DNA of 64,000 nucleotides from Gemmatimonadota bacterium (GCA_003221035.1 QHUB01000019.1:2418-66417); one strand, 5' to 3'. Shown: positions 36,685-58,146, numbered from the stretch's first letter. The notes: a model not told the origin generated them from the letters alone. Program-made: numbers and translations.

Positions 36685-36694
36685 GGAGCGAGCA

Positions 36695-39043: not shown

Positions 39044-39049
39044 GACTCG

Positions 39050-39129
39050 GATTTCACACCCTGAAGGGTGTGCTCGGCACATCGTTGTCCTTAAGGACAA
39101 TGCTGGTCGAGCCTACGCTTTAGCGTGGG
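39050..39129. repeat. REP-like structured intergenic repeat, copy B (three adjacent hairpins) between cheA and cheC
   Basis: cacaccc-tgaa-gggtgtg (39055-39072), ttgtcc-ttaa-ggacaa (39085-39100) and cctacgc-ttta-gcgtggg (39112-39129). The first two are homologous to 547-595. Confidence 0.7.
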
Positions 39130-39135
39130 GGGACA

Positions 39136-39753
39136 ATGGAAGACGTCCGTGATCTGAAGGCGCTGCAGCTCGACGCGCTCAAGGAAGTCGCCAACATCGG
39201 CGCGGGCCACGCCGCGACGGCGCTGTCGCAGCTCACGCACCGGCGCATCATGATTTCGGTGCCCGAGATCAACATCGCTCGCCTCGAAGAGGTGCCCGGG
39301 CTGATCGGCGATTCCCAGGAAGTCGTCGCCGCGGTCCTCATGCACATGCTGGGCGATCTCACGGGCCGCACGCTGCTGCTGTTTCCGGAGCCGGTGGCGC
39401 GGCAGCTCTGCGACATGCTGCTGAAACGTCCGCTCGGCACGACCACGTCGTTCGAAACGATCGAGCAGTCGTGTCTCAAGGAAGCGGGCAACATCCTCTC
39501 GGGCGCCTACATGAACGCGTTGTCGGAGTTCATGGGGATGTTGCTGCTGCCGTCGGTTCCCAGCCTGGTCGTGGATCTTTCGGCCGCCGTGCTCACGACG
39601 ACGTATCTGAATTTCGGGCACGATCGCGATTTCGTGTTTTGCGTCGAGACGGAGTTCAGCATCGATGCGCGGGACGGTCTGCGCGGCCATTTCCTGCTGT
39701 TGCCCGACCTGGCGTCTCTCAAAGCGATCTTCGACGCCATCCGGCTGAGCTGA
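39136..39753 (+). CDS. cheC: CheC-family CheY-P phosphatase
   Basis: Two D/S-x3-E-x2-N-x22-P sites: DALKEVANIGAGHAATALSQLTHRRIMISVP and SCLKEAGNILSGAYMNALSEFMGMLLLPSVP. Confidence 0.88.
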   Translation: MEDVRDLKALQLDALKEVANIGAGHAATALSQLTHRRIMISVPEINIARLEEVPGLIGDSQEVVAAVLMHMLGDLTGRTLLLFPEPVARQLCDMLLKRPLGTTTSFETIEQSCLKEAGNILSGAYMNALSEFMGMLLLPSVPSLVVDLSAAVLTTTYLNFGHDRDFVFCVETEFSIDARDGLRGHFLLLPDLASLKAIFDAIRLS

Positions 39754-39755
39754 GC

Positions 39756-42533
39756 GTGACGGCGCCTCAAGCGACGCCTTCCCCGTCCGCCTCGAGCTCC
39801 TCCGCAGGCCCGTCCCCTCCGCCGTCTCCGCCGGTTTCTGAACGTGATCTCGCGGTCCTGCGCTCGTTCGCGCGCCGGATCGATCCGTCGGATGCCGGCG
39901 CGCACAACAACCTCGGCGTGCTGTACTATCAGAAGGGTCTGGTCCCCGAGGCGATCGAGCAGTTCACGCGCGCGTTGGAGCTCGATCCCCGCATGCAGGT
40001 CGCGCAGCGCAACCTCGAGATTGCCTACCATAACACCGGCTATTACGACGCCCGCGTCGCCGAGCTGCAGGAGAAGCTGCGGGGCGCGCCCGACCAGCGG
40101 GACGCGCGCTGGGAGCTGGGTCGTACCTACGCGATTCTTGGCGCGTTCGAGGAGGCGGTCGCGGAATTCGAAGAGCTGCTCGCCCACAAGCCCAAGGATG
40201 TCGCCGCGGTCATCCAGCTCGGGCTCGCCGAGAAAGCGCGCGGCCGTCTCGAGGTCGCGACGGAGTGGTTCGCGCGCGCGGTCGAGCAGGAGCCGGATTC
40301 GTCCGTCGTGCATTTCTACCTGGGCGAGGTCTATTACAATCGCGGGCTGAACGAGCCGGCGCTCACGGCGCTCGAGCGCGCCGTCTCGCTCAATCCTGAC
40401 AACGCCAACGCGCACTATCTGATGGCGTTCGTCCTGGGCGACATGGGCCGGCACCAGGACGCGCGCGCCGCGTCGAAGCGCGCGATCCAGCTCAACCCGC
40501 CGCTCGCGCGCGCGCAGACGAATCTGTCGCTCGAGCGCTATCGCGCCGAGCGCCAGACGGCCGAGCACCGGATCCGCGAGCAGCCCGCCCCGGAAGTCGC
40601 CGAAGGCAGCGAACTGGCGCACTGCAACCTCGGTCTCGCGTTCCGGCAGAAGGGCTATTACACGGAGGCGTTACGCGAGTATCGGCTCGCGATCGAGCGC
40701 GGCGAAGACCGCCGCCTGGTCCGGCAGGCGATGGCGGAGGTCCATCTCCTCAAGCGCGATTTCGGCGACGCGCTCGAGCTGTACGAGTCGCTGATCCACG
40801 AGACCCCGGAGTCGCCGAAGTTATGGAACGAGCGCGGCGTCGTGCTGCATCAGGCGGGCCGGACGGCGGAGGCGCTGACGTCGTACCGCCAGGCGACGGA
40901 GGTGGACGCGCGCTACGCGCTGGCCTGGAACAACGTCGGCGTCGTGCTCGCGCATCACGGCAATACCGACGACGCCATCGAGGCCTTCCGCAAGGCGCTG
41001 CAGCTGTCGCCCCAGTTCGTCGGCGCGCGACTCAATCTCGCCTTGCTGCTCGCGCACCTGCGGCGTTTCCAGCTCGCGCTCGAGGCATATCGCCAGGTGC
41101 TCGCCGATCAGGCCAACTCCGCCCCGGCGTGGAACGGCGTGGGACTCGTGCTCGTGGAGCTCAAGCGATTTCCCGACGCGCGGAACGCGTTCGTGCGCGC
41201 GGTCGAAGCGGATCCGCAGAATGCGGGTGCGCACTACAACCTCAGCTTCGCGCTGTCCAACCTGGGCGATTACGACGGCGCGCTGCGTGCGACCAAGCGC
41301 GCGCTCGAGCTCGATCCGTACTATGTGTCGCAGAAGTTCGCGCTCGCGATCGATCTCCAGTATGAGACCGTCGCGATCGGCATCATTCCCGAGATTTCGG
41401 CCGACGTCCCCGCCGAGAATCTCGGCGGAGAATTCGCGTTCGACCAGCGGCTGCTCGACAACATTTTCCACGAGCTGCAGCCGGCCGCCACGGGCGTGGC
41501 GCAACAGCCCGCCGCCGCCGGCCTCGCGAAAAAAGCCGACGACCCGCTGGCGCTGGCGCGCGATTACGAGAGCAAGGGGATGATGGATCTCGCCGTGGCG
41601 GAGGCGATGCGCGCAGTCCAACGCGGCGCGGACAAGGGTCTGGCCGCCACGCTGATCGGCGACATCTACGCGCGCCGCGGACTGCACGGCGAAGCGCTGG
41701 AGCGCTACCGCGACGCGCGCACGCTGGACGCCGCGAACGCGGCCGCCGCGCTCGGCGAGGTGCAGAGTCTGCTGGGGTTGCACCGCGGGGCCGAGGCGCT
41801 TCCCATTGCCGAGGACCTGGTCACCAGGGCGCCCGAGCATGTTGAGGTCCTGGTTGCGGCGGCCAAGGCGCGGGCCGCCACGGGCGATGCGGCGGGAGCA
41901 CTGACGGCGCTGCGCCAGGCGCAGACGCGCGCGCCGGCCCGCGCCGATCTGCACAAGCTGCAGGGCGACATTGCCCTCAAAGTGGGCGACCGCCAGGGTG
42001 CTCGCACGGCCTACCGCGGCGCGCTCGACCTGGACAAGGGGTTCGTGCAGGTGTGGCTCGACCTGGGCCGACTCCACGAACAGGACGAAGAATGGCCGGA
42101 CGCGCAACGCGCGTACGAGGAGGCGCTCGAGGCGCTGCCGACGTTCCACGAAGCGGCGCTCGCGCTGTCCGACCTGTTGCGCCGCACCGGAGGGCTTCGC
42201 GCCGCTGTCGTGCGGCTTGCCGGGATGCTGGAGCAGGACCCGTACGACATGGACGCGCTGCTGCTGCTCGGCCGCACGCTCCTCGACGACAAGCGCAACG
42301 CGGAAGGGCTCGAAGTGTTCAGGCGCGCGCTCAAGTTCGATCCCGATCACACCGGCGCGCTGTTTTATCTCGGCGCGACCCTCGCGCGGCTGCAGCGCTA
42401 CGCCGAGGCGGTGGATGCGTGGGAGCGCGTGACGCGGATCGACCCCGGCGGGCCGTTCGCGCAGCGCGCGCGCGTGCATGCGCGCACCGCCGTCGACCTG
42501 CAGCACATCTTCTCAACCTCGGACGCGGCGTAG
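39756..42533 (+). CDS. large tetratricopeptide-repeat protein (~925 aa)
   Basis: Pro/Ser-rich N-terminus, then many TPR units (AHNNLGVLYYQKGL..., AWNNVGVVLAHHGN..., AHYNLSFALSNLGDY...). GTG 3 nt after the cheC stop. Confidence 0.85.
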   Translation: MTAPQATPSPSASSSSAGPSPPPSPPVSERDLAVLRSFARRIDPSDAGAHNNLGVLYYQKGLVPEAIEQFTRALELDPRMQVAQRNLEIAYHNTGYYDARVAELQEKLRGAPDQRDARWELGRTYAILGAFEEAVAEFEELLAHKPKDVAAVIQLGLAEKARGRLEVATEWFARAVEQEPDSSVVHFYLGEVYYNRGLNEPALTALERAVSLNPDNANAHYLMAFVLGDMGRHQDARAASKRAIQLNPPLARAQTNLSLERYRAERQTAEHRIREQPAPEVAEGSELAHCNLGLAFRQKGYYTEALREYRLAIERGEDRRLVRQAMAEVHLLKRDFGDALELYESLIHETPESPKLWNERGVVLHQAGRTAEALTSYRQATEVDARYALAWNNVGVVLAHHGNTDDAIEAFRKALQLSPQFVGARLNLALLLAHLRRFQLALEAYRQVLADQANSAPAWNGVGLVLVELKRFPDARNAFVRAVEADPQNAGAHYNLSFALSNLGDYDGALRATKRALELDPYYVSQKFALAIDLQYETVAIGIIPEISADVPAENLGGEFAFDQRLLDNIFHELQPAATGVAQQPAAAGLAKKADDPLALARDYESKGMMDLAVAEAMRAVQRGADKGLAATLIGDIYARRGLHGEALERYRDARTLDAANAAAALGEVQSLLGLHRGAEALPIAEDLVTRAPEHVEVLVAAAKARAATGDAAGALTALRQAQTRAPARADLHKLQGDIALKVGDRQGARTAYRGALDLDKGFVQVWLDLGRLHEQDEEWPDAQRAYEEALEALPTFHEAALALSDLLRRTGGLRAAVVRLAGMLEQDPYDMDALLLLGRTLLDDKRNAEGLEVFRRALKFDPDHTGALFYLGATLARLQRYAEAVDAWERVTRIDPGGPFAQRARVHARTAVDLQHIFSTSDAA

Positions 42534-42536
42534 CGC

Positions 42537-43688
42537 ATGGCCATCGAAGGACCGCTGCGCGAGCTCGGGATCCACGACGTCTTCCAGCTGCTCGACTTGA
42601 GCCGGAAGACCGGCGCGCTGCGCGTCACGTCGGAGCTGCGTCACAACGAGGGGACGGTCTACTTCGACAACGGCGTCGTCGTGTCGGCCGAGATCCGCTC
42701 CAACCCGCATCCGCTGGGTGCGCTGCTCCTGCGCACCGGCAAGATCGGCGAGGCCGACCTCGAGCGCGCGCGGGACATGCAGCAGCGCCAAGGCGACAAG
42801 CGGCGGCTGGGCGAAATCCTGGTGTCCCTGGGCGTGATCACGCAGCGCGAGGTCGAACGGCAGGTGCGGTTCCAGATCGAAGAAGTCGTCTTCGAGGTCA
42901 TGAGCTGGAACGAAGGCTACTTCTCGTTCGCCGAGCAGACGGAGAGCAAAGTCCCGACGGAGCTGACGGTTCGAATCCCGGTCGAGGCGCTGCTCATGGA
43001 AGGCGCGCGCCGCATTGACGAATGGTCGCGCATCGAAAACCGGATTCCGCACGTCGGCGTCGTGCCGTCCCTGGCGCCGCCGCCGGAAGGCGGAGGCGGC
43101 GAGCTCGACCTGCTGCCGCCCGAGTGGGAAGTGCTCGCGCTCATCGACGGTGAGCGCTCGGTACGCGGCCTCGCGACCGAGCTCGGCCGCTCGGACTTCG
43201 AAGTCGCGAAGACGCTGTTTGGGCTCGAGAGCGCCGGCGTGATCGTGCTGGTCGATCCAGGGCATTCCCGCCGCGCTCGACCGGGCGCCGGCGGTGACCT
43301 CGCGGAGCTCGTCGCAGAGCTGATGGCGAAGGCTGAGACCGCCCTGCACGCGAAGGACCTCGACGCGGCGCGCGCCGCGGCCGAGCAGGCCGGCAGCATG
43401 CAGCCGCACGACGCGACGATCCATCTGGTGCTCGGACGTATTCACCTCGCGCAAGGACACGCATCCGCGGCGGCCGAGGAGCTCCGGCGAGCGCTGCGGC
43501 TCGATCCACTCCTGGCGGCGGCGCATCGCCATCTGGGGTTCGCGCACGTGTCGATGGGACGCTTCGGTGAAGCCGTGGAGAGCTGGGATCAGTGGGACCG
43601 CCTGGCGAGCCGCAGTCCCGAGGAAGACGCGCAGCGCGGAGCTGTGGATCGCGCGCGGCAGGCGGCCAAGGTATTCGCGCATGGATGA
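42537..43688 (+). CDS. PATAN/DUF4388 domain protein with C-terminal TPR
   Basis: N-terminus GPLRELGIHDVFQLLDLSRKTGALRVTS...GTVYFDNGVVVSA, with a helical insertion (LGEILVSLGVITQREVERQ). TPR tail. Confidence 0.8.
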   Translation: MAIEGPLRELGIHDVFQLLDLSRKTGALRVTSELRHNEGTVYFDNGVVVSAEIRSNPHPLGALLLRTGKIGEADLERARDMQQRQGDKRRLGEILVSLGVITQREVERQVRFQIEEVVFEVMSWNEGYFSFAEQTESKVPTELTVRIPVEALLMEGARRIDEWSRIENRIPHVGVVPSLAPPPEGGGGELDLLPPEWEVLALIDGERSVRGLATELGRSDFEVAKTLFGLESAGVIVLVDPGHSRRARPGAGGDLAELVAELMAKAETALHAKDLDAARAAAEQAGSMQPHDATIHLVLGRIHLAQGHASAAAEELRRALRLDPLLAAAHRHLGFAHVSMGRFGEAVESWDQWDRLASRSPEEDAQRGAVDRARQAAKVFAHG

Positions 43689-44523
43689 AATTCGGGCGCT
43701 CTCGGCGCAGCTCGCGCAGGATCCGCAGAGTCTGGTGTTCCTGCGGCTCGGCGAAGCGTTGCGCCGCAAAGGGCAGCTCGACGCGGCGCTGCGCGTCGCC
43801 ACGAACGGCCTGGAGCGCCATCCGCATCTTGCCGACGCGCACGACCTGTACGCGCGCATCCTGACGGACAAGCACGACTACGAGAAGGCATTCGACGAGT
43901 GGGACATGGCCGTGCGAATCGCGCCGCACCATACGGGCGCGCTGAAGGGACTTGCCTTCCTCTACTTCAAGATCGGAGACCTGCAGCAGGCTGAAGCGCA
44001 TCTCGCCGCTGCCAAGCGAGTCGAGCCCGACGATCCGACCATCGATCAGGCGATCGAGATGATGCGTGGCGGAGCGAAAGGACCGGCCGAGCAACCCGCC
44101 GCCCCTTCGCCGCCCTCCGGCGCCGCTTCAATCGCCGCCCCGGCAGCCGCGACCGGCGGACTCGATGAAGCCCGAGTGTTCGCCGGTCTTGAGGGGGCCA
44201 ATGAAGGCTTGCTCCTCATCGATGGTTCGGGGCGGGTACTCGGTGGGGCGCTAAAAGACGGCGGGGGAACGGACGTCACGGACGCGGTCGCCGCGTATCT
44301 GGCGGGTGTGTCTCAGGAAGCCGCGCGTACGGCGAAGTTGCTCGGTCTTGGCGCCTGGAACGGCCTCTCGGCGGAGGGGCAGCATGGAAACGTACACCTC
44401 GCCCACCCGACGCCTGACGCCTTGCTCCTGGTGGTCCGCGAGCGCGGCATTCCACTGGGCCGGCTCGCCATTCTCGCGCAGCGCGCGACGTTGATGGCGC
44501 GCCGCTGGCTGGAGCGACAGTGA
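43681..44523 (+). CDS. TPR + Roadblock/LC7 fusion protein
   Basis: N-terminal TPRs and an Ala/Pro linker. The C-terminal segment is Roadblock-like (GLLLIDGSGRVLGG...AAYLAGVSQEAARTAKLLGLG...LLLVVRE). The ATG overlaps the upstream stop by 8 nt. Confidence 0.75.
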   Translation: MDEIRALSAQLAQDPQSLVFLRLGEALRRKGQLDAALRVATNGLERHPHLADAHDLYARILTDKHDYEKAFDEWDMAVRIAPHHTGALKGLAFLYFKIGDLQQAEAHLAAAKRVEPDDPTIDQAIEMMRGGAKGPAEQPAAPSPPSGAASIAAPAAATGGLDEARVFAGLEGANEGLLLIDGSGRVLGGALKDGGGTDVTDAVAAYLAGVSQEAARTAKLLGLGAWNGLSAEGQHGNVHLAHPTPDALLLVVRERGIPLGRLAILAQRATLMARRWLERQ

Positions 44524-44867
44524 GCGCGGCGCTCGATCTGATCACGCGGGTGCGCGGGGTGCGCGGCGCGATGCTCGTCTCGGCCGAGGACGGGCTCGTC
44601 GTCGCCGAACAACTGATGGAGGGGATCAAGGGCAGTGCGGTCGCCGCACTGGCCGCGAGTTTGGCAGGACGGCTGCGCCGCGCGATGGAAGCGTCAGGGA
44701 CCGGGAGGAGCGTATTCTGGCATCTTCAGGCCGAGCAGGGGGCGCTGCTGGTCGTGCCCAGCGGGGAGGAGTCCGGCAATCTCCTGGTCGTCGCCGTAGC
44801 CGAGCCCGACGTGAATATTGGACTGGTGCGTCTGGAGCTGCTGCGCGCGGCGGAGGCCGGTACATGA
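44520..44867 (+). CDS. Roadblock/LC7 domain protein (MglB/MglC-like paralogue)
   Basis: VRGVRGAMLVSAEDGLVVAEQL...AALAASLAGRLRRA...LLVVAVAEPDVNIGLVRLEL. 4-nt overlaps on both sides. Confidence 0.8.
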   Translation: MSAALDLITRVRGVRGAMLVSAEDGLVVAEQLMEGIKGSAVAALAASLAGRLRRAMEASGTGRSVFWHLQAEQGALLVVPSGEESGNLLVVAVAEPDVNIGLVRLELLRAAEAGT

Positions 44868-45340
44868 GTCCGCACACGCGCGCCGTCGAGACCTGGACGC
44901 TACAGCCGCTGACCGACTTCGTGCGCGAAGCGTCGGCGCGGCTGGTGCTGGTGCTTACGCCGTCCGGCCAGGTACTGGCGCAGTCGGGCTTCTCGCGCGC
45001 GGTGGACGTGATGTCCGCCGCCGCGCTCGCCGCCGCGATCGTCGCATCGACGGGCGAGCTCGCGCGCCAGCTCCGCCAGCCGCCGTTCGCCGCGCTCAGT
45101 CATCAGGGTCCCCGGACCGGATTCTTTCTCGCGACGTTCCTGACCGACCGCGGGACGCTCGCCGTGCTGGCCGTCTACGATCTCGACGTTTCATCACTGG
45201 GCATCGTTCAATTATTCTATGAGCAACTTGCGGCGGACTTGAAGGCGGCGAGTCCGAAAGGAGCGGTACCGAAACAGGTGCTGGCGGCAGACTTCGAGCG
45301 GGAGTTGACGGACAGCCTCAACACGCTGTTTGGGAGATAG
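44864..45340 (+). CDS. mglB: MglB-like Roadblock/LC7 GTPase-activating protein
   Basis: 158 aa, directly upstream of mglA as in Myxococcus. Roadblock core [15 protein letters not shown]...[16 protein letters not shown]...[19 protein letters not shown]. The acidic C-tail ...DSLNTLFGR resembles the MglB tail. Confidence 0.75.
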
Positions 45341-45347
45341 GCGGCGC

Positions 45348-45950
45348 ATGTCCCTGGTCAACTTCACGGCCCGCGAGATCACGTGCAAAATCGTCTATTA
45401 CGGACCGGGGCGGTCCGGCAAGACGACCAATCTCCATTACATCTACGGACGTGTGCCGGAGACGCGGCGCGGGCGCATGGTCTCGCTCGCGACGCAAACC
45501 GACCGCACGCTGTTTTTCGATTTCCTGCCGATCGACCTCGGCCAGATCTCGGGGTTCGCGACGCGATTTCAGCTCTACACGGTGCCGGGCCAGGTCTACT
45601 ACAACGCCACCCGCCGGCTCGTGCTGCAGGGCGCCGATGGCGTCGTCTTTGTGGGCGACAGCCAGGCGCGGCAGCTCGACGAGAACATCGAGAGTCTCCA
45701 GAATCTCCAAAGCAATCTGCTGGAGCACGGCGTGGACGTGCGCGCGATGCCGCTGGTCATGCAGTACAACAAGCAGGACCTGCCCCCCGAGCTGATCTTG
45801 ACTCCTCCCGAGCTCGATGACGCGCTCAACTTTCGGAGCGTACCGAGCTTTCCGGCGGATGCGCTCCACGGCAGAGGCGTGTTCGAAACGCTCAAGTCGG
45901 TATCGGAGTTAGTCCTCAAGAAGCTCGCGGCGGGGAGTCCCGCATCATGA
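45348..45950 (+). CDS. mglA: Ras-like small GTPase MglA
   Basis: Near-colinear with M. xanthus MglA as I recall it: [21 protein letters not shown] (P-loop), [27 protein letters not shown]. Confidence 0.92.
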
Positions 45951-47899
45951 CCAGCTCGCTGAATCCCCGCTTTACGTTCGAGACCTTCGTGGTGGGTGCG
46001 GCCAATCGTCTCGCCGTCACGGCGGGACGAACCGTGGCCGAGAATCCCGGGTCCGCCTACAACCCCCTTTTCATTTATAGTGGCTCCGGGTTAGGGAAGA
46101 CGCACGTGCTCATGGCGATCGGTCATGCGGCCAAGACGATCGCCTCGCAGCTCAACATCGAATACCTGACCCTGGATGAGTACGTCGAGGCCTTTCACGC
46201 GGCCATCGCCGCGGGTCAGGGCGACGCTTTCCGCCGCCGCTTTCAGAACGTCGACGTGCTGCTCGTAGACGACGTTCAGTTCCTCACGAATCGCAAGGAG
46301 ATGCAGGCCGAATTGCTGCGGCTGACCGAGGCGCTGCAGCAGTCTGGTCATCAGATCGTCCTCGCCAGCGACCGGCCGCCCGCGGAGATCGCCGATTTGG
46401 ACGAGCGGTTGATCTCGCGATTCTCCGGCGGGCTCGTGGTCGACATGGGCATCCCCGACTACGAGACGCGCGTCGCGATTCTGCGCCGCAAGGCCGAGGA
46501 GCGCGGCAGCAAGTTCCAACCCGGCGTGCTCGAGGCGGTCGCGAAAGTCGAATACCCAAACGTCCGCGAGCTCATGGGCGCACTCAATCGCTTGATCGCG
46601 TTTCAGGCGGTCAACGACATGCCGATCAACGAGGAGACGGTTCGCAAGGTGTTGGGCGTCCCGACCGCCGGTTCACCGACCGCCGGTTCATCGACCGTCG
46701 CCTCACCTACCGTCGGTTCACCCGACGAGTTCTCTCAGTTCTTGAGCGATGTCACCGTCACCGTCGGCAAGGCTGTCGAAGCCTGGAGAGCGCGCGTCGC
46801 CGAGGCGGTCATGCGCTGGGAGGGCGAAGGCTACCGGACCGGCCGGCTCGAAAAGCTGCTCGAGCAGGAGACACCCGCCGCGGTGGACGAAGCGATCGCG
46901 GCGTACGTGCAGGATGTCGAGCGGCTCAAGACGCTCGAGGCGGAAGTCGCGGTGCTCGATCCGCAGGCTGCCGGCGAAAAGGTGTTTCGCGATCCCGATC
47001 ATATGGAGGCGGCCGAAGCAGCGGCCGCGAAGGTGCGGGAGGGCGCCGCGCCGCCGCCCGCACCGTCGGCCGCGTTCCCGCTCGAGACCTATTGTGCCGG
47101 CGCATCCAATGAGGTCGCGTTGAACGCGGCGCGCGACGTGATCGCGAAGCCCGGCAAGAAATACAATCCGCTCGTCATCGTGGGTCGCAGCGGCCTCGGT
47201 AAAACGCATCTCCTCAATGCCATCGGCGTCGAGCTGGCCAGGAAGAAGCACGCGGTCGTCGCCTGCCTGTCGACGCAGCAGTTCGTGGACGAGCTGATTG
47301 CGGCGATCGACGGCAACCGCGTGGACTGGTGGCGTGCGCGCTACCGTCGTGCGACGGCGCTCTTGCTCGATGACATCCAGCTGCTCGCGGGGAAAGAGCG
47401 GACGCAGGAAGAGCTGTTCAACCTGTTCAATCACCTCGTGGACGCCGACCGCCAGCTCATCTTCACGGCGCCGGCGCATCCCAACACGCTCGAGGGAATC
47501 GAGGAGCGCATCGTCTCGCGGCTCGAGGGCGGTCTGGTCGCCGAGATCGCGGAACCGGACAAGGATCTGCGTCGTGGCATGCTGGAGCGGCTGCTCACGC
47601 AGCACCGCGTACCCGTGGAGCCCGCGCTCCTCGATTATCTGGCCGACCGCCCGATCGACTCCGTGCGAAACTTGACCGGCATCGTGCAACGCATCATCGA
47701 AGCCGCGGCGGCACAGGACGCGCCGGTGACGGCGGGTCTGGCGCGCGAAGTGCTGGAAGGCGCCCCGGTGCCGCGGCGCACGACCGGTCTGCGCACGAGC
47801 GGGATTGTGGTGTCGAGCGCGGGGGGCGTCCGCAGCCGGGAGAAGATGGTCTGGGACTGGCCCACATCGGGAGACCGCGTGATCGAGGATCTGCGCTAA
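45947..47899 (+). CDS. tandem double DnaA/Hda-type AAA+ ATPase protein lacking DnaA domains I and IV
   Basis: Module 1 (~aa 7-236): [49 protein letters not shown]. Module 2 (~aa 386-606): [49 protein letters not shown]. No HTH domain IV. ATGA overlap with mglA. Confidence 0.85.
46661..46720 (+). repeat. 4 x 15-nt tandem repeat inside the double-AAA+ gene linker
   Basis: ccgaccgccggttca, ccgaccgccggttca, tcgaccgtcgcctca, cctaccgtcggttca. These encode [20 protein letters not shown]. Confidence 0.9.
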
Positions 47900-49516
47900 A
47901 TGGCGATCAAAGGCTCGCTCAAGGAAGCGTCCCTCCCCGACGTCCTGCAGCTGCTCGCGCTGGGGCAGAAGACCGGCTGCCTGTCGATCGCCGACCGCTC
48001 GAACTTCGGCTACATCTACTTCGACAAGGGCCGGATCTCGTACGCCTCGATCGTCAATCGCCGCGACCGCCTCGGCGACATCCTCGTCAAGCACGAGAAG
48101 ATCACGCAGGAGCAGCTCGACGCCGCGATCCATCGCCAGTCCAAGGAGCGCGACAAGAAGCTCGGCGAGATCCTGGTCGTACAGAGTGTGCTCACGCAGC
48201 AGGAGCTCGAGCGGTACATGCGGATGCAGATCGAGGAGTCGGTCTACTATCTGTTCACCTGGACGCAGGGGACGTTCAATTTCGAGTCCGACGTCCGCCC
48301 GGAGCAGCAGGACTTTCTCGTCTCCATCAATCCCGAGTCGCTGCTGCTGGAAGGGGCGCGGCGCGTGGACGAGTGGGGGCTGATCGAAAAGAAGATCCCG
48401 TCGTTCGACCTGATCTTTCTCGTGGATCGCGATCGCCTCGCGATCAGCGACGCCACGCTGACCGAGGTCCAGGATCGGCTCCTCTCGCTGCTCGACGGCT
48501 CGCGCGACGTCAACCAGGTGATCGAAGACTCCGGGCTGGGCGAATTCGAAGTCGGCAAGGCGCTCTACGGTCTCGTCACCGCCGGATTTCTGCATCGGGC
48601 GGGTCGCACGATCAGCGCCGAAGACGTCAAGATGACCGATGCGCGCGTGGAGGAGCACCGCAACCTCGGCATCGCGTTCTACAAGACCGGGATGCTGGAC
48701 GAAGCGGCGCGCGAATTCCGGCGCGTGGCGGAGCTGCGCGGCACCGATGCCAACGCGCATTTTTTCATCGGGCTGGTGGCGCTCAAACAGGCGCGCTGGC
48801 GCGAGGCGATGGAAGCGCTGCGGCTCGCCGCCGAGAAGGGCGGCTCCCGTCCCGCGGTGCTCCACAATCTCGGCCTCGCGTTCGAGCAGCTCGGCCGACT
48901 GGAGGATGCCGAGGCCGCCTACGCGGAAGCGGCGTCGCGGGCGAAGACCGATCCCCGAGTCTACCTCGGATGGGGCATCGTCGCGCTCAAGCAGGGCGAT
49001 CATCGCGGCGCGGCCGGTCGGCTCGACCGCGCGAAGGAGCTGTTCGCCGCGCACGTCCCGCCGATCTGGTTCTGGGCGCGCGCGCTCGCCGCGGCGGCCG
49101 CCGGCGATTTCGAGACCGCCGAGCAGGTGGCCGGCCAGGCCGTCGAAGCGCATCCGCAACACGGCGTGCTGCGCAACAACCTGGCGGTGCTGCACGAGCT
49201 GGCCGGAGACCTGACCAAGGCCGAGGAGCTGGCGCGCGCGGCGCTGCGGGACGAGCCCTCCCTGCCGCAGCTGTCCAAGAATCTCGGTGACCTCGCCTAC
49301 CGCAGCTCGCGCTACGACGAGGCATGGGATCTGTACCAGCGCGCGATCGATCTCGCCCCGGAGCTCGGCGACGACGTCTACTTCAAGCTCGGCAACATCG
49401 CGTACAAGCGAAACGACCGCGAGCAGGCGAGCGAGCTGTGGCGGCGCGCGCTGGAGCTCAATCCCAAACACGAGCTCGTCAAGGCAAATCTGGATACCCT
49501 GAGCAGTCTGTCGTGA
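47900..49516 (+). CDS. PATAN/DUF4388 domain protein with C-terminal TPR (second paralogue)
   Basis: GSLKEASLPDVLQLLALGQKTGCLSIAD...GYIYFDKGRISYA, with helical insertion LGEILVVQSVLTQQELERY. Long TPR tail. The ATG directly follows the upstream stop. Confidence 0.82.
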   Translation: MAIKGSLKEASLPDVLQLLALGQKTGCLSIADRSNFGYIYFDKGRISYASIVNRRDRLGDILVKHEKITQEQLDAAIHRQSKERDKKLGEILVVQSVLTQQELERYMRMQIEESVYYLFTWTQGTFNFESDVRPEQQDFLVSINPESLLLEGARRVDEWGLIEKKIPSFDLIFLVDRDRLAISDATLTEVQDRLLSLLDGSRDVNQVIEDSGLGEFEVGKALYGLVTAGFLHRAGRTISAEDVKMTDARVEEHRNLGIAFYKTGMLDEAAREFRRVAELRGTDANAHFFIGLVALKQARWREAMEALRLAAEKGGSRPAVLHNLGLAFEQLGRLEDAEAAYAEAASRAKTDPRVYLGWGIVALKQGDHRGAAGRLDRAKELFAAHVPPIWFWARALAAAAAGDFETAEQVAGQAVEAHPQHGVLRNNLAVLHELAGDLTKAEELARAALRDEPSLPQLSKNLGDLAYRSSRYDEAWDLYQRAIDLAPELGDDVYFKLGNIAYKRNDREQASELWRRALELNPKHELVKANLDTLSSLS

Positions 49517-50286
49517 CCGATGAGGGGGCCTTCGAAGCCCTGACGCAGAAGATTTCGCGCGAGCGGGGCATGAGCTGCGGGTCGTACAAGAACAAGTGCC
49601 TGAAGCGCCGCATCGCGGTGCGGATGCGGGCGCGCGCCATCCACACCTACGACGATTACGCCAGACTCCTCGATCGCGACCCGCACGAGTACCAGGCGCT
49701 GCTCGATGCGCTGACCATCAACGTCACCAAGTTCTATCGCAATCCAGAGACGTGGGATGCGCTGCGGCCGTATCTCGCGGAGCTCTGGACGGTGCGGCGC
49801 GGCGCGCTGCGGATCTGGTCGGCGGGGTGCGCGTCAGGCGAGGAGCCGTACACGATCGCCGTGCTGCTCGCCGCCGCCGGAGCGCAGGGCACGATCGACG
49901 CGACCGACATCGACCGGCTGAGTCTCGAGCGGACCCGCCAGGCGCAGTATCCCGATGCCGCGTTCACCGAGATGCCTGCGGATCTGCGGCGACGCTACTT
50001 CCGCGACGGCCAACCGGCGCAGGAGGTCCGGGCGCTCGTGCACGTCCTGGCGCACGACCTCACCCGCGAGCCGCCGCCCCGCACGACGTACGACCTGATC
50101 GTGTGCCGCAACGTGGTGATCTACTTCGAGCGCTCGGCGCAGGAGCGCCTGTTTCAGGTCTTTGTCGACGCGCTGCGACCCGGCGGCGTGCTGGTCCTCG
50201 GAAAAGTGGAGACGCTGTTCGGGCCGGCGCGCGAGCGCCTGACGCTCGCCGATCCGCGCGAGCGGATTTACCGCAAGCCCGCGTGA
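49513..50286 (+). CDS. cheR: chemotaxis protein methyltransferase CheR
   Basis: INVTKFYRNPETW and SAM-binding IWSAGCASGEEPYTIA ... DLIVCRNVVIYF. The GTG overlaps the upstream stop. Confidence 0.9.
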   Translation: MTDEGAFEALTQKISRERGMSCGSYKNKCLKRRIAVRMRARAIHTYDDYARLLDRDPHEYQALLDALTINVTKFYRNPETWDALRPYLAELWTVRRGALRIWSAGCASGEEPYTIAVLLAAAGAQGTIDATDIDRLSLERTRQAQYPDAAFTEMPADLRRRYFRDGQPAQEVRALVHVLAHDLTREPPPRTTYDLIVCRNVVIYFERSAQERLFQVFVDALRPGGVLVLGKVETLFGPARERLTLADPRERIYRKPA

Positions 50287-50765
50287 AGGAAATCATCGTC
50301 AAAGTCGCGGACTGGGCAGCCGAGCGAGGCGATGGCGTCCTGGTGACGCTGGGTCTGGGCTCCTGCGTCGCCATCATGCTGCACGATCTGGAGACGCAGA
50401 CCGGCGGCATGGCGCACGTGCTGCTGCCGTCCACGAGCCTTGCCCGCGACATCACGAACCGCGCGAAGTTTCCCGATACCGCCGTGCCGCTGCTCGTCGA
50501 GCGACTCAGCAGACTGGGCGCGGATCCGCGCCGGCTGGTCGCCAAACTGGCGGGCGGCGCGCGCATGTTCAGTCAGCTCGTCACCCCCGGCACGATCCAG
50601 ATGGGCGAGCGCAATGTCCTGGCATGCCGCAGCGCGCTGCGCGCGGCGGCCATCCCCATTGTCCGGGAATCCGTCGGTGGCGAGCGTGGCCGCAGCGTGC
50701 GCTTCCATCTGAGCGACGGTCGCGTCGAGATCCGTTCGGTCGGAACGAATGTCGATGTCATCTGA
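50283..50765 (+). CDS. cheD: chemoreceptor glutamine deamidase CheD
   Basis: [16 protein letters not shown]...GGMAHVLLP...GERNV. The GTG overlaps the cheR stop. Confidence 0.9.
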
Positions 50766-51858
50766 TCAACCCGCCCGGCCCACCGTGCTCGTCGCCGACG
50801 ACAGCGCGCTGATGCGGCGCGTGCTCGCCGATGTGCTGGGCGGCGGCGACGCGAACGACGGTGCGTTTCGCGTCGTGGCGACCGCCCGCGATGGACTCGA
50901 CGCGATTCGCAAGGTCCATCAGCACAACCCGGACGTCGTCACACTCGATCTCGAGATGCCTCAGCTCGACGGGCTTGGCGCCATCGGATACATCATGTCC
51001 GAGGCGCCGCGGCCGATCGTGGTGGTGAGTGCGCACGCCGGGCCGGGGACACAGGCGGCGATCCGCGCGCTCGAGCTCGGTGCAGTCGAAATCGTCGCGA
51101 AGCCGCCGCTGCCCGCGGAGGGATTTGGCCATCCGCGCGCCGCACTCGAGGCGCTGGCGCCCGCGCTGATCGCCGCCGTGCGCCGCGCGCTCGCGGCGGA
51201 TGTGTCCCACGTGAAGGTGCTGGCGCGGCCCCCGGCGCCGGTCGTCCATCCACCGGATCTGGGGCTGCGCGGGCGCGCGTGGTTCGCCGTTGGAATCGCC
51301 GCATCCACCGGCGGCCCGCGTGCGCTCGCGGACGTCGTGCCGCGCCTCCCCACCGGTCGCCGCGCCGCGGTTCTGGTCGTGCAACACATGCCGCCCAAGT
51401 TCACGCGCAGTCTCGCGGAGCGGCTCGATTCGATGAGTCACCTGCGCGTCGTCGAGGCGGACGACGGGGCACCGATCGTCGCCGACACGGCGTACGTGGC
51501 CCCGGGCGATTATCATATGCGTGTGCGCTCGGCTCCCGATGGTCCCGTGATCGCGCTCGACCAATCAGCGCCGATTTGGGGTGTGCGGCCGGCGGCCGAT
51601 CCGCTGTTCCGCTCCATCGCGGAGGCGTACGGCGCCCGGAGCGTGGGCGTCGTCCTCACCGGGATGGGCCGAGACGGCGCCGACGGCTTGCGCGCGATCA
51701 AAGACGCGGGCGGCAGTGGCTTCGCCCAAGACCGTGAAACCGCCGTCATTTCCGGCATGCCGGCCGCGGCGGTGCAGGCGGGAGGCGTCGATGCCGTGTT
51801 GCCGCTCGGCCAGATCGCCGAGCGCGTGACCGCCGAGCTGGCGCGAAAGGGACGATGA
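50749..51858 (+). CDS. cheB: protein-glutamate methylesterase/response regulator CheB
   Basis: REC domain ([25 protein letters not shown]) plus methylesterase domain ([21 protein letters not shown]). Confidence 0.93.
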
Positions 51859-52277
51859 AGGGCTACTTGCTCGTGCGGTCCGAGGGAAAGGCCTACGGTT
51901 TGCCGGTCGCGAGTGTGCTGGAAGTGGGCGATACGACCGAAGTCTTCCCCATTCCGCGCAAGCTTCCCGCGGTCCGCGGATTGACGCCGCTGCGGGGCCG
52001 TCTGGTGCCGCTCATTCATCTGGGTGCGCTGCTCACGGGTCGCGAAGCCCCGGCGCTGTCGTCGGGATCGCGGACCGTCGTGCTCGTGCAACTCGGAGGA
52101 GTTACGCGCGACCGCCAGGCCGCGTTCGAGGTGGACGACGCCGATGCCGTCGTGCGCGAGCAGCCGCTGCCGGTGCCGCGCGGGCATTCACTGCCATGGG
52201 CCGCGGGCGTGGCCGAGCGGGAGGGCGGGCTGGTCCCGATCCTCGATCTCGATGCGCTGGGCGATCGGATCGTATGA
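51855..52277 (+). CDS. cheW: CheW-like coupling protein
   Basis: [21 protein letters not shown]...[25 protein letters not shown] overlap with cheB. Confidence 0.82.
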
Positions 52278-52747
52278 GCACCATCACGAGCGCCGGCGGC
52301 GACGACATCCAGCTGGTCACGTTCAAGGTGGCCGGTCAGGATTTCGCCTTCAACATCTTTCAGGTGGAGCGCATTCTGCGGTATGAGGCACCGGCGCCGC
52401 TGCCCAAGGCGCCGGAGTTTCTGGCAGGGGTGTTGCAATACCAGGGCAATGCCGTGCCCCTCGTCGATCTGCGCAAGCGGCTCGGTGCCGCGGCGCCGCT
52501 GCGCGAAGACACCCGCACCGTCATCCTCGAGTTCGACGGCGGCAAGATCGGCGTGATCGTCGATGCGGTGACGGAAGTGATGCAGGTCGCGGCCCAGGCG
52601 GTGACCCCTCCGCCCGGCATCGTGCGCGGGCTCGCCGCGGAATACATCGCGGGCCTGGTTGTGCAGAATGGCCGGACCATCGTCGTGCTGAACACGAACA
52701 AGCTGCTCAACTCGACCGAGAAGCTGGCTCTGCAGGAAGCGACATGA
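52274..52747 (+). CDS. cheW: CheW-like coupling protein
   Basis: QLVTFKVAGQDFAFNIFQVERILR...FLAGVLQYQGNAVPLVDLRKRLG...IGVIVDAVTEV. The ATG overlaps the upstream stop. Confidence 0.88.
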   Translation: MSTITSAGGDDIQLVTFKVAGQDFAFNIFQVERILRYEAPAPLPKAPEFLAGVLQYQGNAVPLVDLRKRLGAAAPLREDTRTVILEFDGGKIGVIVDAVTEVMQVAAQAVTPPPGIVRGLAAEYIAGLVVQNGRTIVVLNTNKLLNSTEKLALQEAT

Positions 52748-53610
52748 CGACCGAATCACCCGTCGGACTGCTGCGCCGGGAGTACGACGCGATCGCCCGG
52801 CAGCTCGACGGCGCGGCCGGCAATGCCGAGCGCGAAGCCGCCAAGCGCGAGATCATCGCGTTCTTCAAGAAGGTCGACGGGCAGCTCGGTGAGCTGACGC
52901 AGTTGAAGGAAGACATCCGCCAGCTGGTCGATCGCTACAAGCAGCTCACCGCCGATACGAAGGGGGCTGCCGCGCCGGAGTTCACGGGGCAACGCCCGGT
53001 CCTGCACGCCGATCACATCGGCGCGACCACGTTCATCGAAAAGGGCTGGAGCCTCATCTCGCTCGGCGATCATGCGGGCGCCATTCAGGCGCTGACCAAA
53101 GCGCTGCAACTGTCGCCCGGCGACACGCAAGCGGAGTCGCTGCTCGGCTGGGCGCAGATGCTGCACGAGGACTACGACGACGCACTCGGCACCTTTCAGA
53201 AAGTTCTGATGAAGGAGCCGGCGAATTCCCTCGCCCGGATCAACGTGGGCTACATCTGTCTCAAGAAACGGATCTTCGGCGAAGCGATCGAGCATCTCTC
53301 CAAGGCGATCCGGCTGGACAACGACAAGAAGGCGACGTTGTATGCGCACTTTTATCTCGGACTCGTGTACCTGCAGCGCGAGATGTATGAGGACGCGGAG
53401 ACCTTCTTCCAGAAAACGCTCAAGTTGGGGCCGAACCTGATCGAGGCGTATTACGAGCTGGGGCGCGCGCACTGGTACGCCGGCGATCAGGACAAGGCCA
53501 AAGGCACGTGGCAGGATGGATTCAAGGCCAACAAGTTCAATCCCTGGGGCAGGAAGTGTCAGGAAATGCTGGAGCTTGTCGCTAAGGGCGAGGAGCCGCC
53601 GCGAGAATAA
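52744..53610 (+). CDS. coiled-coil + TPR protein (last gene of the Che/Mgl array)
   Basis: N-terminal coiled coil followed by TPRs (GDHAGAIQALTKALQLSP, ARINVGYICLKK..., AYYELGRAHWYAGD). ATGA overlap with cheW. Confidence 0.8.
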   Translation: MTTESPVGLLRREYDAIARQLDGAAGNAEREAAKREIIAFFKKVDGQLGELTQLKEDIRQLVDRYKQLTADTKGAAAPEFTGQRPVLHADHIGATTFIEKGWSLISLGDHAGAIQALTKALQLSPGDTQAESLLGWAQMLHEDYDDALGTFQKVLMKEPANSLARINVGYICLKKRIFGEAIEHLSKAIRLDNDKKATLYAHFYLGLVYLQREMYEDAETFFQKTLKLGPNLIEAYYELGRAHWYAGDQDKAKGTWQDGFKANKFNPWGRKCQEMLELVAKGEEPPRE

Positions 53611-53618
53611 TTCACCTG

Positions 53619-53636
53619 GCCCTGCTCCTGCAGGGT
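53619..53636 (+). terminator. short hairpin after the array (weak terminator candidate)
   Basis: ccctgc-tcct-gcaggg, 9 nt after the TAA. No U-tract. Confidence 0.25.
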
Positions 53637-53684
53637 CTGTCGTCCCCGCCCGCATCCACCCCCGTCGCCGTCACCGTTGGGCGT

Positions 53685-54515
53685 GTGACCGCGGTTGCCT
53701 GGCCGAGCCAGCAGAGTCTCGCGATCGCGCTGGCGGAGCTCGCGGATAATGCGCGCGATTTCCCCGGCATCGGTCCCATGCCGGGTGACCGTCCGATCCG
53801 GCTGATTCTCGCTCCGACGCGCGCGCGCTACGACTCGCTGACGCGCGGCCGGCTGCCGCTCTGGAGTGAGGGGGCCGCCTTCCCGGACGCCGCAACCATC
53901 GTGTTATTGACCGTCCGACCGTCCGATCGACCGACCGTCGCCCTGCGGCACGAGCTCGCGCATCTCGCGCTGCGCTGGCATGTGCAGCGGTACGTGCCGC
54001 TGTGGTTCGAGGAGGGATACGCCGCCGTCGCGGCCCAGGAGTGGGATCGGCTCGACGCGCTGCAATTGAATTGGCAGCTGGCGCGTGGCGTTCAGATGAG
54101 TCTCGACGACATCGACCGCGCGTTGCGCGGCAATCGCGGCGACGCCGAGGCCGGCTATGCGCTGGCGACGACCGCGGTGTTGCTGCTGCAGCGCTGGGGC
54201 GGGGAACGGGGACTGACGCCACTCATGGCCAATCTCCCCACGGCGGAGTCATTCGATGCCGCGCTGCGTACTACGTATCACATCACGGAGGGCGACTTCG
54301 AGCTCCGCTGGCAGAAAGACGTTGGCTCTCGATACGGCTGGCTGTCCTGGATGGCGGCGATGGGGTTCTTCTGGTTGGCGATCGGCACGCTGCTGGTCGC
54401 GTTGGTCCTCATGCGGCGCAAGCGGGACCGGCGGAAGCGGGCGGCGCTGGAGGAAGAGACGGCCGGAGACCCGGATGGAAGCCAACTGCTTGACGAGCTT
54501 GAGATTACCGAATAG
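53685..54515 (+). CDS. membrane-anchored HExxH protein (peptidase MA-like, putative)
   Basis: HELAH motif (RHELAHLALRW) with a downstream EEGYA. C-terminal TM helix WMAAMGFFWLAIGTLLVALVLM, then a basic/acidic tail. Confidence 0.6.
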   Translation: MTAVAWPSQQSLAIALAELADNARDFPGIGPMPGDRPIRLILAPTRARYDSLTRGRLPLWSEGAAFPDAATIVLLTVRPSDRPTVALRHELAHLALRWHVQRYVPLWFEEGYAAVAAQEWDRLDALQLNWQLARGVQMSLDDIDRALRGNRGDAEAGYALATTAVLLLQRWGGERGLTPLMANLPTAESFDAALRTTYHITEGDFELRWQKDVGSRYGWLSWMAAMGFFWLAIGTLLVALVLMRRKRDRRKRAALEEETAGDPDGSQLLDELEITE

Positions 54516-54529
54516 ACTCCAGCCCCGAA

Positions 54530-54715
54530 ATGCCAGACCAAACAGTTGCACGTTCGCGCCTCCGCTTCGGACCGAAGAACTACATCGTTCTCGGTGGCGC
54601 GCTCGTGTCGTTGGCGCTTGGGTATTGGTTGCTGTCGAAGGGTTCCACGACGCTCGCGCCGGTGCTGCTGGTGCTGGGCTACTGTGTGCTGTTTCCAGTA
54701 GGCCTGGCGCTTTAG
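54530..54715 (+). CDS. small two-TM membrane protein (DUF3098-like)
   Basis: 61 aa: FGPKNYIVLGGALVSLALGYWLL...LAPVLLVLGYCVLFPVGLAL. Confidence 0.55.
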   Translation: MPDQTVARSRLRFGPKNYIVLGGALVSLALGYWLLSKGSTTLAPVLLVLGYCVLFPVGLAL

Positions 54716-54737
54716 CACCTCCGCTACCCCATGGCAC

Positions 54738-54811
54738 GGGCGAATAGCTCAGCGGTTCAGAGCGCCTGCCTTACACGCAGGATGTCGGGGGTTCGAATCC
54801 CTCTTCGCCCA
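54738..54811 (+). tRNA. tRNA-Val (UAC)
   Basis: Acceptor GGGCGAA/TTCGCCC, D-arm GCTC..GAGC, anticodon arm CCTGC-CTTACAC-GCAGG, T-loop TTCGAAT. Confidence 0.93.
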
Positions 54812-54847
54812 TTGGTGTAGCAGCCCGTTCACGGAGGAACGAACACG

Positions 54848-58145: not shown

Positions 58146-58146
58146 C

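Follow-up and report, generated by a model that had tools for sequence, protein, structure and literature searches.

The question raised here is what the ATPase core of DnaA, the initiator of replication, does when it stands twice in a single reading frame within a chemosensory gene array. The frame lies in a stretch of 64,000 nucleotides from a soil Gemmatimonadota bacterium (GCA_003221035.1 QHUB01000019.1:2418-66417), below called the window, and its 650-residue product, a tandem DnaA domain III (DnaA-III) ATPase encoded at 45947..47899 on the plus strand, is here named DnaA2x. DnaA2x is a member of an uncharacterised, DnaA-derived family that is conserved across the Gemmatimonadota, with the architecture DnaA domain III, variable spacer, novel helical domain, second DnaA domain III and conserved C-terminal peptide. 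From its motifs and its gene neighbours I consider it, on balance, probable that DnaA2x acts as an ATP switch or scaffold subunit of a polarity or motility signalling complex, and not as a replication initiator. The parts of the protein, in window positions, are the following.

45947..47899, plus strand: the whole DnaA2x open reading frame (ORF), 650 residues without internal stop; two DnaA matches each from Pfam and NCBIfam; mean predicted local distance difference test (pLDDT) of 88.4 in an AlphaFold2 (AF2) model.
45956..46654, plus strand: module 1 (residues 4-236), a DnaA domain III AAA+ core with all catalytic motifs; phmmer against PDB, B. subtilis DnaA domain III at E=7e-58.
46664..46735, plus strand: variable spacer rich in Pro, Thr, Ser and Gly (residues 240-263), predicted disordered (pLDDT <50), its length varying among 30 aligned members.
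46736..47056, plus strand: family-specific helical insert of 107 residues (264-370); AF2 on the insert alone, pLDDT 90 and predicted template modelling score (pTM) 0.73.
47060..47758, plus strand: module 2 (residues 372-604), the second DnaA domain III AAA+ core; phmmer against PDB, DnaA at E=1e-40 and Hda at E=6e-6.
47777..47896, plus strand: conserved C-terminal extension (residues 611-650), ending in [20 protein letters not shown] (residues 631-650); low pLDDT.

The start codon of DnaA2x overlaps the TGA stop of the upstream mglA in an ATGA at 45947-45950, as stated in a preliminary description of this DNA, and its TAA stop is followed at once by an ATG (47897-47902), the downstream PATAN-TPR gene beginning at 47900. 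It might be thought that such a frame is an artefact or a decaying gene, that is, two dnaA-like genes fused by assembly or annotation, a dnaA duplicate undergoing degeneration, or a helper of the IstB type from an IS21 element; there are weak secondary Pfam matches to IstB_IS21, and the databases label the protein as DnaA (names in use are "chromosomal replication initiator protein DnaA", "DnaA/Hda family protein" and "AAA family ATPase"). However, an ORF of 645-657 residues, at 89-100% identity, occurs in more than 120 clusters from independent assemblies, a relative is encoded in 188 species genomes of a GTDB-based collection, and when 1.84 billion cluster representatives were searched exhaustively with HMMER, dozens of about 650 residues were retrieved, with 32-56% identity and aligned end to end in one stretch. 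This conservation rules out an assembly fusion, the point that the preliminary description had left for checking, and conservation extends to the catalytic residues, the insert and the tail. The identity as an IstB/DnaC helicase loader is rejected too: IstB_IS21 scores 62 bits vs 345 bits for the DnaA model, NF038214 reaches 96 bits vs a cut-off of 200, and no transposase lies adjacent or nearby. I regard the artefact explanation as refuted, with a negligible remaining probability.

Both modules are recognised as DnaA domain III by profile, sequence and fold. Pfam Bac_DnaA (PF00308) matches DnaA2x in two stretches at E=1.2e-103 (345 bits), and the NCBIfam equivalog DnaA (TIGR00362) scores 511 bits, again in two stretches, with residues 2-236 covering profile positions 101-335, which is domain III. 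The module limits are at residues 4-236 and 372-603 by phmmer, and the two modules are 35% identical to one another (E=3e-43). In a Foldseek search of the DnaA2x model the best match is DnaA domain III (8bv3_A; E=1e-21, template modelling (TM) score TMt 0.95, root mean square deviation (rmsd) 1.5 Å, one module aligned); by sequence, module 2 matches this same structure, 8BV3, at E=1e-40, and besides meaningless superpositions of the p97 type the whole-model fold search gave DnaA only. Module 1 has Walker A GSGLGKTH (K51), Walker B LLVDD (D108, D109), sensor I SDR, box VII R154 and R158, and sensor II R207. In module 2 these are Walker A GRSGLGKTH (K419), Walker B LLLDD (D475, D476), box VII R521 and R525, and sensor II R574, with GKERTQ in addition. 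The initiator-specific motif, a helix pair between strand 2 and the Walker B strand, is found in both (residues 76-88 and 92-100, and residues 443-455 and 459-467, according to DSSP). The AF2 model, built from 30 diverged homologues, is confident for the domains (mean pLDDT 88.4) and not for their mutual arrangement (pTM 0.52).

The two colinear copies of domain III, and every diagnostic box quoted for them in the preliminary description, are thus found in place and in the right order. Of its wording that the modules are of the DnaA/Hda type, the first half stands and the second does not. The Hda model TIGR03420 covers residues 378-604 with 177.6 bits, below its cut-off of 194.8, and the NF models for Hda and HdaA reach 19-68 bits vs cut-offs of 268-300. 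The NCBIfam best match had suggested an Hda-type module 2, which I reject, as this module is far closer to B. subtilis DnaA than to Hda (1e-40 vs 6e-6).

In DnaA, domain IV is responsible for origin recognition, with a helix-turn-helix for the DnaA boxes, and domain I serves in helicase recruitment and binds DiaA and other partners. Neither is found in DnaA2x by Pfam at E<=1 (Bac_DnaA_C PF08299, domain IV; DnaA_N PF11638, domain I), module 1 begins at residue 4, and the 46 residues following module 2 are mostly predicted disordered. A cryptic domain IV or I in the region between the modules is rejected by Pfam, hhalign and Foldseek, the alignment of the helical insert with domain IV having a probability of 0.07% (hhalign) and that with domain I one of 0.3% (profile-profile). 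The absence of both domains, as first described, is therefore upheld by profile-profile and fold comparison. Nor does the gene lie in an origin-proximal context with dnaN, recF, gyrB or rpmH, the neighbours from 36.2 to 56.7 kilobases (kb) being che, TPR, PATAN, Roadblock and mglA genes; clusters of DnaA boxes were not searched for.

Alternatively, DnaA2x could be a regulator of replication or the cell cycle, which caps or joins filaments of genuine DnaA, or stimulates their hydrolysis in the manner of Hda, and so would bring initiation under control of MglA and Che. Of all families, genuine DnaA is the nearest to either module (E=7e-58 for module 1, 1e-40 for module 2), the GKERTQ motif is kept in module 2, and the arginine finger of this module is the better conserved one and outlives its own dead P-loop in the Longimicrobiales (see below), which would fit a finger acting in trans. 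The gene island to which DnaA2x belongs also lies between divIVA-ileS-rluD and rsmH-ftsL-ftsI-murE. However, the division and cell-wall cluster is not adjacent in the minimal loci L090 and L092 (loci are numbered L081 to L094 here), all eight contexts of tail-bearing members adjoin signalling or scaffold genes (TPR, mostly PATAN, and in some Roadblock, MglA or Che), no replication gene is present among the neighbouring genes examined, and related fusions carry TPR and receiver domains. The protein itself has no domain I and no domain IV, an Hda-like beta-clamp motif (QL[SD]LF-like) was not seen, on inspection only, before module 1, where the N-terminus reads [14 protein letters not shown], and module 1 has an acidic residue at a position that contacts single-stranded DNA (ssDNA). 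I therefore consider a role in replication rather unlikely.

Conservation of the motifs was counted in an alignment of 30 diverged members with 32-56% identity.

Walker A lysine: 30/30 in module 1 (K51), 29/30 in module 2 (K419).
First Walker B aspartate: 30/30 in module 1 (D108), 29/30 in module 2 (D475).
Sensor II arginine: 28/30 in module 1 (R207), 26/30 in module 2 (R574).
Box VII arginine, the arginine finger: 14/30 in module 1, 25/30 in module 2 (R525).

The last of these positions is equivalent to R285 of E. coli DnaA. The family is defined by two DnaA-III modules that are separated by an insert of the form DEFxxFL...RW..EG.RT.RLE...FRDPD, as they are in DnaA2x, and its named members all come from metagenome-assembled genomes of Gemmatimonadales, Gemmatimonadota or Longimicrobiales, with the exception of one branch, for which "Candidatus Cloacimonetes bacterium 4572_55" is the closest named member. 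While Gemmatimonadales members have both P-loops intact, a subfamily of the Longimicrobiales type (at least 1843 proteins at E<=1e-40, from Longimicrobiales and others) has an intact module 1 and a module 2 which lacks Walker A and B and keeps sensor I and the sequence DRLRSRFEGGL. Because the P-loop of module 2 is lost here and fingers are lost elsewhere, no catalytic feature other than the nucleotide site of module 1 is universal; next in generality comes the arginine finger of module 2. At the position of the Arg in the 'KER' motif of DnaA, module 1 has a conserved acidic residue, E118 (E in 16 and D in 7 of the 30), and an acid at this ssDNA-contact position would speak against ssDNA binding by module 1.

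In a rough neighbour-joining tree, the module 1 sequences of the Gemmatimonadales and Longimicrobiales types group together, and those of module 2 split into two distinct groups on long branches; nearer to genuine DnaA lie the modules of the family member P0164 and of the 4572_55 lineage. The tandem appears to predate the split of Gemmatimonadales and Longimicrobiales, since the full architecture of module 1, insert, module 2 and tail is common to both orders, and this is a better argument than the tree. DnaA2x diverges faster than its neighbours, with 35-37% identity where MglA has 74-80% and IleRS about 55%.

These patterns suggest how the two modules could work together. Module 1 would bind ATP, as its K51 and D108 alone are invariant in the 30 members and are intact in the other lineages compared. 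Module 2 may dock on module 1 like neighbouring protomers of a DnaA filament, so that R525 would complete the site of module 1, giving one composite site per polypeptide; in the window protein module 2, too, appears to have a complete ATP site. Binding and hydrolysis of ATP might then toggle the protein from a closed to an open (or oligomeric) state and back.

A different possibility is that the protein is not a closed intramolecular switch and assembles into open helical filaments through its initiator-specific motifs, forming a nucleotide-dependent, cytoskeleton-like polar scaffold that concentrates the TPR, PATAN and MglA proteins. An oligomerising scaffold of this sort had been proposed in the preliminary description, the helix pair in both modules would serve it, and the window protein and its close relatives keep both ATP sites and both arginines, by which head-to-tail propagation is allowed. 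However, the finger of module 1, which propagation beyond one molecule requires, is found in only 14/30 members, and module 2 of the Longimicrobiales subfamily is predicted to be unable to bind ATP. I consider a polymer unlikely; it might apply to the window protein, which has all the motifs, and agrees poorly with these losses in other members.

The stretch of about 150 residues between the modules is predicted to hold a conserved, folded helical domain, with the motifs DEFxxFL, RW..EG.RT.RLE.LL and FRDPD in the 30-member alignment and with E261, F262, F265, G295, T298, L301, D349 and P350 nearly invariant in or at the insert. It has no match by sequence in PDB and none in Pfam, and the best hit of a fold search has E=3.2. 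In 53 orthologues, the identity to the window protein is 0.90 for module 1, 0.38 for the spacer (residues 240-263), 0.83 for the insert, 0.81 for module 2 and 0.81-0.89 for the last 40 residues.

The C-terminus, which had been dismissed at first as a short unrelated tail, is in fact among the best conserved motifs outside the ATPase cores. It follows the consensus EK[MV][VI]WxWP...DR[LIV][IV]E[ED], in DnaA2x EKMVWxWP...DRLIEE, and among the 30 members E632 is present in 28, K633 in 29, W638 in 29, P639 in 28 and E647 in 26. A predicted-disordered segment stands between module 2 and this terminal peptide, whose low pLDDT is as expected for a linear motif. The motif is found in nearly all members of 570-900 residues and is absent from relatives fused to MshEN, REC or TPR domains, as well as from a relative bearing domain IV. 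Because the fused relatives lack the tail, and because a TPR gene is adjacent to the gene of tail-bearing members, I propose that the tail is a candidate docking peptide for a separate TPR partner.

The nature of this partner is suggested by the genes that accompany DnaA2x. From the 188 species genomes the best 80 loci were fetched (71-92% identity; nearly all labelled Gemmatimonadales or Gemmatimonadota), and in 79 of the 80 mglA is located upstream and a PATAN-TPR gene downstream of DnaA2x, the order mglB-mglA-DnaA2x-PATAN/TPR being colinear in 79/80; wherever the contig is long enough, colinearity extends from cheA to the TPR gene that is at 52.7 kb in the window. More distant contexts are arranged as follows.

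L085: 37% identity to the DnaA2x of the window; same array.
L083: 35% identity to the DnaA2x of the window; array without cheA/R/D/B/W.
L090, L091 and L092: Longimicrobiales type; rluD-(Roadblock)-DnaA2x-PATAN/TPR-Peptidase_MA, with no mglA and no che.
L093: Longimicrobiales type; an insertion sequence (IS) element interrupts the PATAN-TPR gene.
L081: 4572_55 lineage; cheW-cheY-cheA-AAA_22-cheW-cheC-TPR-PATAN-DnaA2x.
L094, the locus of P0164: an 867-residue TPR protein directly upstream of DnaA2x; no PATAN.

A TPR-containing neighbour is present in eight of eight contexts and a PATAN-TPR protein in 6/8; with L081, where a PATAN gene stands beside a separate TPR gene, PATAN comes to 7/8. The downstream PATAN-TPR proteins of L083, L085, L090 and L091 are orthologous (42-59% identity over about 535 residues), and the gene is present also in L092. 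Its start abuts or overlaps the stop of DnaA2x in the window, L083, L085, L090, L091 and L092, which is every locus with a downstream PATAN-TPR gene, and translational coupling of DnaA2x with its partner is the usual arrangement. Where a Gemmatimonadota context has a Peptidase_MA gene, this gene always lies downstream of the PATAN-TPR gene, or in L093 of the TPR part that is left of it, directly in L090-L093 and after intervening che and TPR genes in the window, L083 and L085. MglA as an obligatory partner is rejected, as it is not adjacent in L081 and L090-L094, and so is Roadblock, which is absent in L081, L092, L093 and L094. Since the Longimicrobiales and 4572_55 contexts lack mglA and the minimal loci lack che, MglA and Che seem to be additions of one order, and the TPR-containing partner the constant. 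The linkage to mglA and che that was expected of homologues therefore holds within the Gemmatimonadales (79/80 loci, L083, L085) and fails for an adjacent mglA in L081 and L090-L093.

Three of these loci show additional features. In L093 (9948-12460, on a 4.0-Mb contig) a DDE transposase occupies the place of the PATAN-TPR gene, leaving a 55-residue stub and a 250-residue TPR remnant beside an intact DnaA2x, a natural disruption of the partner. L081 encodes a 272-residue AAA_22/STAND-like NTPase between cheA and cheW (4035-4853). In L094 two bactofilin genes (3765-4667) precede the DnaA2x gene that encodes P0164 by about 5.5 kb, with tsaD-gatC-gatA and the 867-residue TPR gene in between.

Taking modules, tail and neighbours together, the complex that I favour would be built with the adjacent TPR/PATAN protein and, in Gemmatimonadales, also with MglA-MglB, the additional TPR and Roadblock proteins and a Che pathway of its own. 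The EKMVWxWP...DRLIEE peptide would tether DnaA2x to the TPR domain of its partner, and the PATAN domains of the partner may relay the state of the ATPase to a motility or polarity machine; in Gemmatimonadales the ATP switch would be wired to MglA-MglB and to the Che pathway. More tentatively, and with a somewhat smaller chance of being right, an initiator AAA+ core would have undergone duplication, shed the parts that bind DNA and come to serve as a third nucleotide switch beside the GTP switch of MglA and the phosphorylation switch of CheY, tethered to the PATAN-TPR protein by the C-terminal peptide. In a bolder variant DnaA2x might still engage genuine DnaA, coupling chemosensory or polarity signals to the initiation of replication.

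Several observations weigh against the proposed switch or scaffold. There is no pilus, gliding or flagellar gene in the window on which it could act, and L094 has no PATAN neighbour. The docking of the tail on TPR proteins is a correlation over nine contexts, and with a pTM of 0.52 the model does not fix the arrangement of the modules, so that the composite site is derived from motif conservation. One sub-lineage outside the Longimicrobiales-type subfamily (P0126, P0134, P0147, P0156 and P0193) lost the box VII arginines of both modules, and hydrolysis stimulated by an arginine finger can therefore not be universal. Furthermore, module 2 of the window protein keeps the GKERTQ of Aquifex DnaA, and also residues that match V211 and R227 of E. 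coli DnaA, which together leave room for an activity directed at nucleic acid or at DnaA. The earlier suggestion of a scaffold or switch rather than a replication factor fits all contexts examined.

The surroundings of DnaA2x in the window form a one-strand island of about 20.5 kb, from a cheW at about 36.17 kb to the end of a TPR gene at 56.68 kb, in the order cheW-cheY-cheA-cheC-TPR-PATAN-TPR gene-TPR(-Roadblock)-Roadblock-mglB-mglA-DnaA2x-PATANx2-TPR-cheR-cheD-cheB-cheW-cheW-TPR-Peptidase_MA-like-TPR. The position of DnaA2x between mglA and a PATAN-TPR gene within a chemosensory array, and the identity of mglA, were correctly read from the sequence in the preliminary description; the true start of mglA is the Met at 45348.

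36170..39753, plus strand: cheW (about 36170-36684), cheY (36695-37057), cheA (37058-39043) and cheC/X (39136-39753); Pfam CheW; Response_reg; Hpt, P2, H-kinase_dim, HATPase_c and CheW; CheC.
39471..42533, plus strand: large TPR protein; Pfam TPR with E down to 5e-86; the true start is probably at about 39750, after cheC.
42537..43688, plus strand: PATAN (DUF4388) and TPR protein, 383 residues; Pfam DUF4388 E=1.6e-32, plus TPR.
43567..44523, plus strand: TPR protein with a weak C-terminal Roadblock-like region; Pfam TPR, Robl_LC7 E=9e-4; start uncertain (overlaps the upstream gene).
44520..44867, plus strand: second Roadblock/LC7 protein; Pfam Robl_LC7 E=3.7e-10.
44864..45340, plus strand: mglB-like Roadblock/LC7 protein; Pfam Robl_LC7; phmmer against PDB, MglB at E=2e-8.
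45348..45950, plus strand: mglA, Ras-like polarity GTPase; M. xanthus MglA E=7e-73, T. thermophilus MglA E=2e-68.
47900..49516, plus strand: protein with two PATAN domains and TPR, 538 residues, of all neighbours the one kept most constantly in the family; Pfam DUF4388 in two stretches, E=1.1e-38, plus TPR.
49324..52747, plus strand: cheR, cheD, cheB and two cheW; Pfam CheR, CheD, CheB_methylest with Response_reg, and CheW twice.
52744..56680, plus strand: TPR (52744-53610), Peptidase_MA_2-like (53685-54515) and TPR (54848-56680) proteins; Pfam.

The mechanically called ORFs of cheR (from 49324) and cheD (from 49596) share hundreds of bases with the genes before them, and because the Pfam matches begin at ORF residues 70 and 276, the real starts are much later, at about 49.5 kb and 50.3 kb. 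Orthologues of the large TPR protein, of 820-900 residues, occupy the same position in L081, L083 and L085. The array holds CheA, CheY, CheC, CheD, CheR, CheB and three CheW proteins, and no gene for a receptor (methyl-accepting chemotaxis protein, MCP) is present among the ORFs scanned from 36170 to 56680; a gene of the RomR/RomX type was not found among the scanned ORFs of the window. The island is flanked by yggS-divIVA-pnp-ileS-dksA-like-lspA-rluD on the left (29104-36155) and rsmH-ftsL-ftsI-murE on the right (56885-61580). The order on the left is that of the divIVA-ileS-ylyA-lspA-rluD region of B. subtilis, an ordinary housekeeping arrangement. The insertion site after rluD is common to all examined Gemmatimonadota contexts with this flank (window, L083, L085, L090-L093). 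As a functional clue, adjacency to the division and cell-wall cluster is weak, as L090 and L092 do not lie beside it.

Relatives with fused domains show other combinations of the same core. P0252 (L088, 3-2633) has 876 residues, of which about 600 are TPR repeats, followed by a single DnaA-III and no domain IV, and is thus a fusion of the two partner types of the window. P0215 (L087, 9249-11465; 738 residues) has two DnaA-III modules, the second with a degenerate P-loop, and ends in a receiver domain; it is encoded in a phosphorelay locus, beside genes for a PAS hybrid kinase, REC-HD-GYP, Hpt, REC, Hpt and REC. P0200 (673 residues; ENA, on a 2.7-kb contig) carries, after two DnaA-III modules, a genuine Bac_DnaA_C at 584-647 and is a tandem that keeps DNA binding; as its modules are each other's closest relatives in the neighbour-joining tree, a recent duplication is suggested.

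In L089 (3436-25923; GCA_030620115.1) and L086 (1738-16490; JGI 3300068090) there are giant proteins of 1876-1990 residues with MshEN and two DnaA-III modules about 1200 residues apart, with smaller MshEN and DnaA-III proteins beside them, in a type IV pilus locus with pilD ... pilB, pilT, pilC, pilS, pilT/U and pilR. MshEN is the N-terminal domain type of PilB, which binds cyclic di-GMP. As direct evidence for a pilus function these fusions are rejected, having neither helical insert nor tail and not grouping with the family modules in the rough tree; an alignment of an MshEN fusion which reaches residue 367 is an envelope artefact. DnaA-III seems to have been recruited to a motility machine independently here, a parallel case.

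With regard to novelty, no paper was found that ties DnaA-like ATPases to MglA, PATAN, Roadblock or chemosensory systems, in a full-text literature outside of which most subscription journals fall, and the earlier remark that no characterised member was known agrees with this. A survey of prokaryotic Ras-like GTPases reports PATAN genes near some mglA, with no ATPase mentioned (PMC4316618). The fold and the clade of DnaA2x are known, its architecture, accessory parts and context are new, and its function is very probably new as well. To my knowledge, DnaA domain III is found otherwise only in replication proteins (DnaA, Hda) and in helicase loaders and transposase helpers (DnaC, IstB).

If the proposed re-use as a third switch is true, DnaA2x would be without precedent among the AAA+ proteins of the initiator clade in having a function unrelated to DNA; the clade would then reach into signal transduction, and the MglA polarity paradigm would gain an ATPase. 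Thousands of entries are labelled "chromosomal replication initiator protein DnaA", and pipelines that use such labels for origin prediction, or to set the genome start at dnaA, could be misled in Gemmatimonadota. The natural series of members with both P-loops intact, with the second dead and its finger kept, and with both fingers lost is a system in which the evolution of composite AAA+ sites could be followed in one chain.

Compared with known systems, DnaA2x shares with DnaA domain III (8BV3, 8BTG, 2Z4R, 1L8Q/3R8F) the fold of the AAA+ initiator clade, Walker A and B, the box VII Arg, the sensor II Arg and the helix pair, and in module 1 only also sensor I. However, it has two modules per chain, no domain I, no usual domain II and no domain IV, and it has a new helical insert and a new C-terminal peptide; module 1 has Glu where DnaA has an ssDNA-contacting Arg, and the gene is located in a signalling operon and not beside genes of the dnaN/recF type. 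Hda and HdaA are likewise DnaA-type AAA+ proteins without DNA-binding domain, with an arginine finger as the key element of Hda, but Hda is a single module of about 230 residues that needs an N-terminal clamp motif, which was not seen in the two-module DnaA2x. Type II tandem AAA+ proteins (p97/Cdc48, NSF, ClpB) also have two AAA+ modules per polypeptide (Foldseek E of about 1e-14), yet belong to the classic clade and form closed, stacked hexamers with pore loops; with a superposition rmsd of 20-30 Å and a TM score of 0.25-0.3 the likeness is an architectural analogy only.

I know of no AAA+ ATPase in the characterised MglA modules of Myxococcus, Bdellovibrio and Thermus, in agreement with the literature searched. 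In M. xanthus the polarity logic leads from Frz via MglA/MglB to the TPR effector SgmX and PilB (PMC11580455), and like the system of MglA, MglB/MglC, RomR-RomX, SgmX, FrzS and SopA described there (PMC11580455), the window combines orthologues of MglA and MglB, extra Roadblock proteins, several large TPR proteins and a Che pathway in one operon-like array. In contrast to such systems, the ATPase of the Longimicrobiales has no adjacent mglA. PixE of Synechocystis binds PilB1, the ATPase of the pilus motor, through its PATAN domain, which suffices for output; PATAN is a chemosensory output domain that binds PilB1 and PilC (bioRxiv 10.1101/2021.06.11.447907). The recurrent partner of DnaA2x resembles the PatA-type proteins PixE and PixG in carrying PATAN domains; in the window, however, PATAN is fused to TPR instead of a receiver and is paired with an ATPase.

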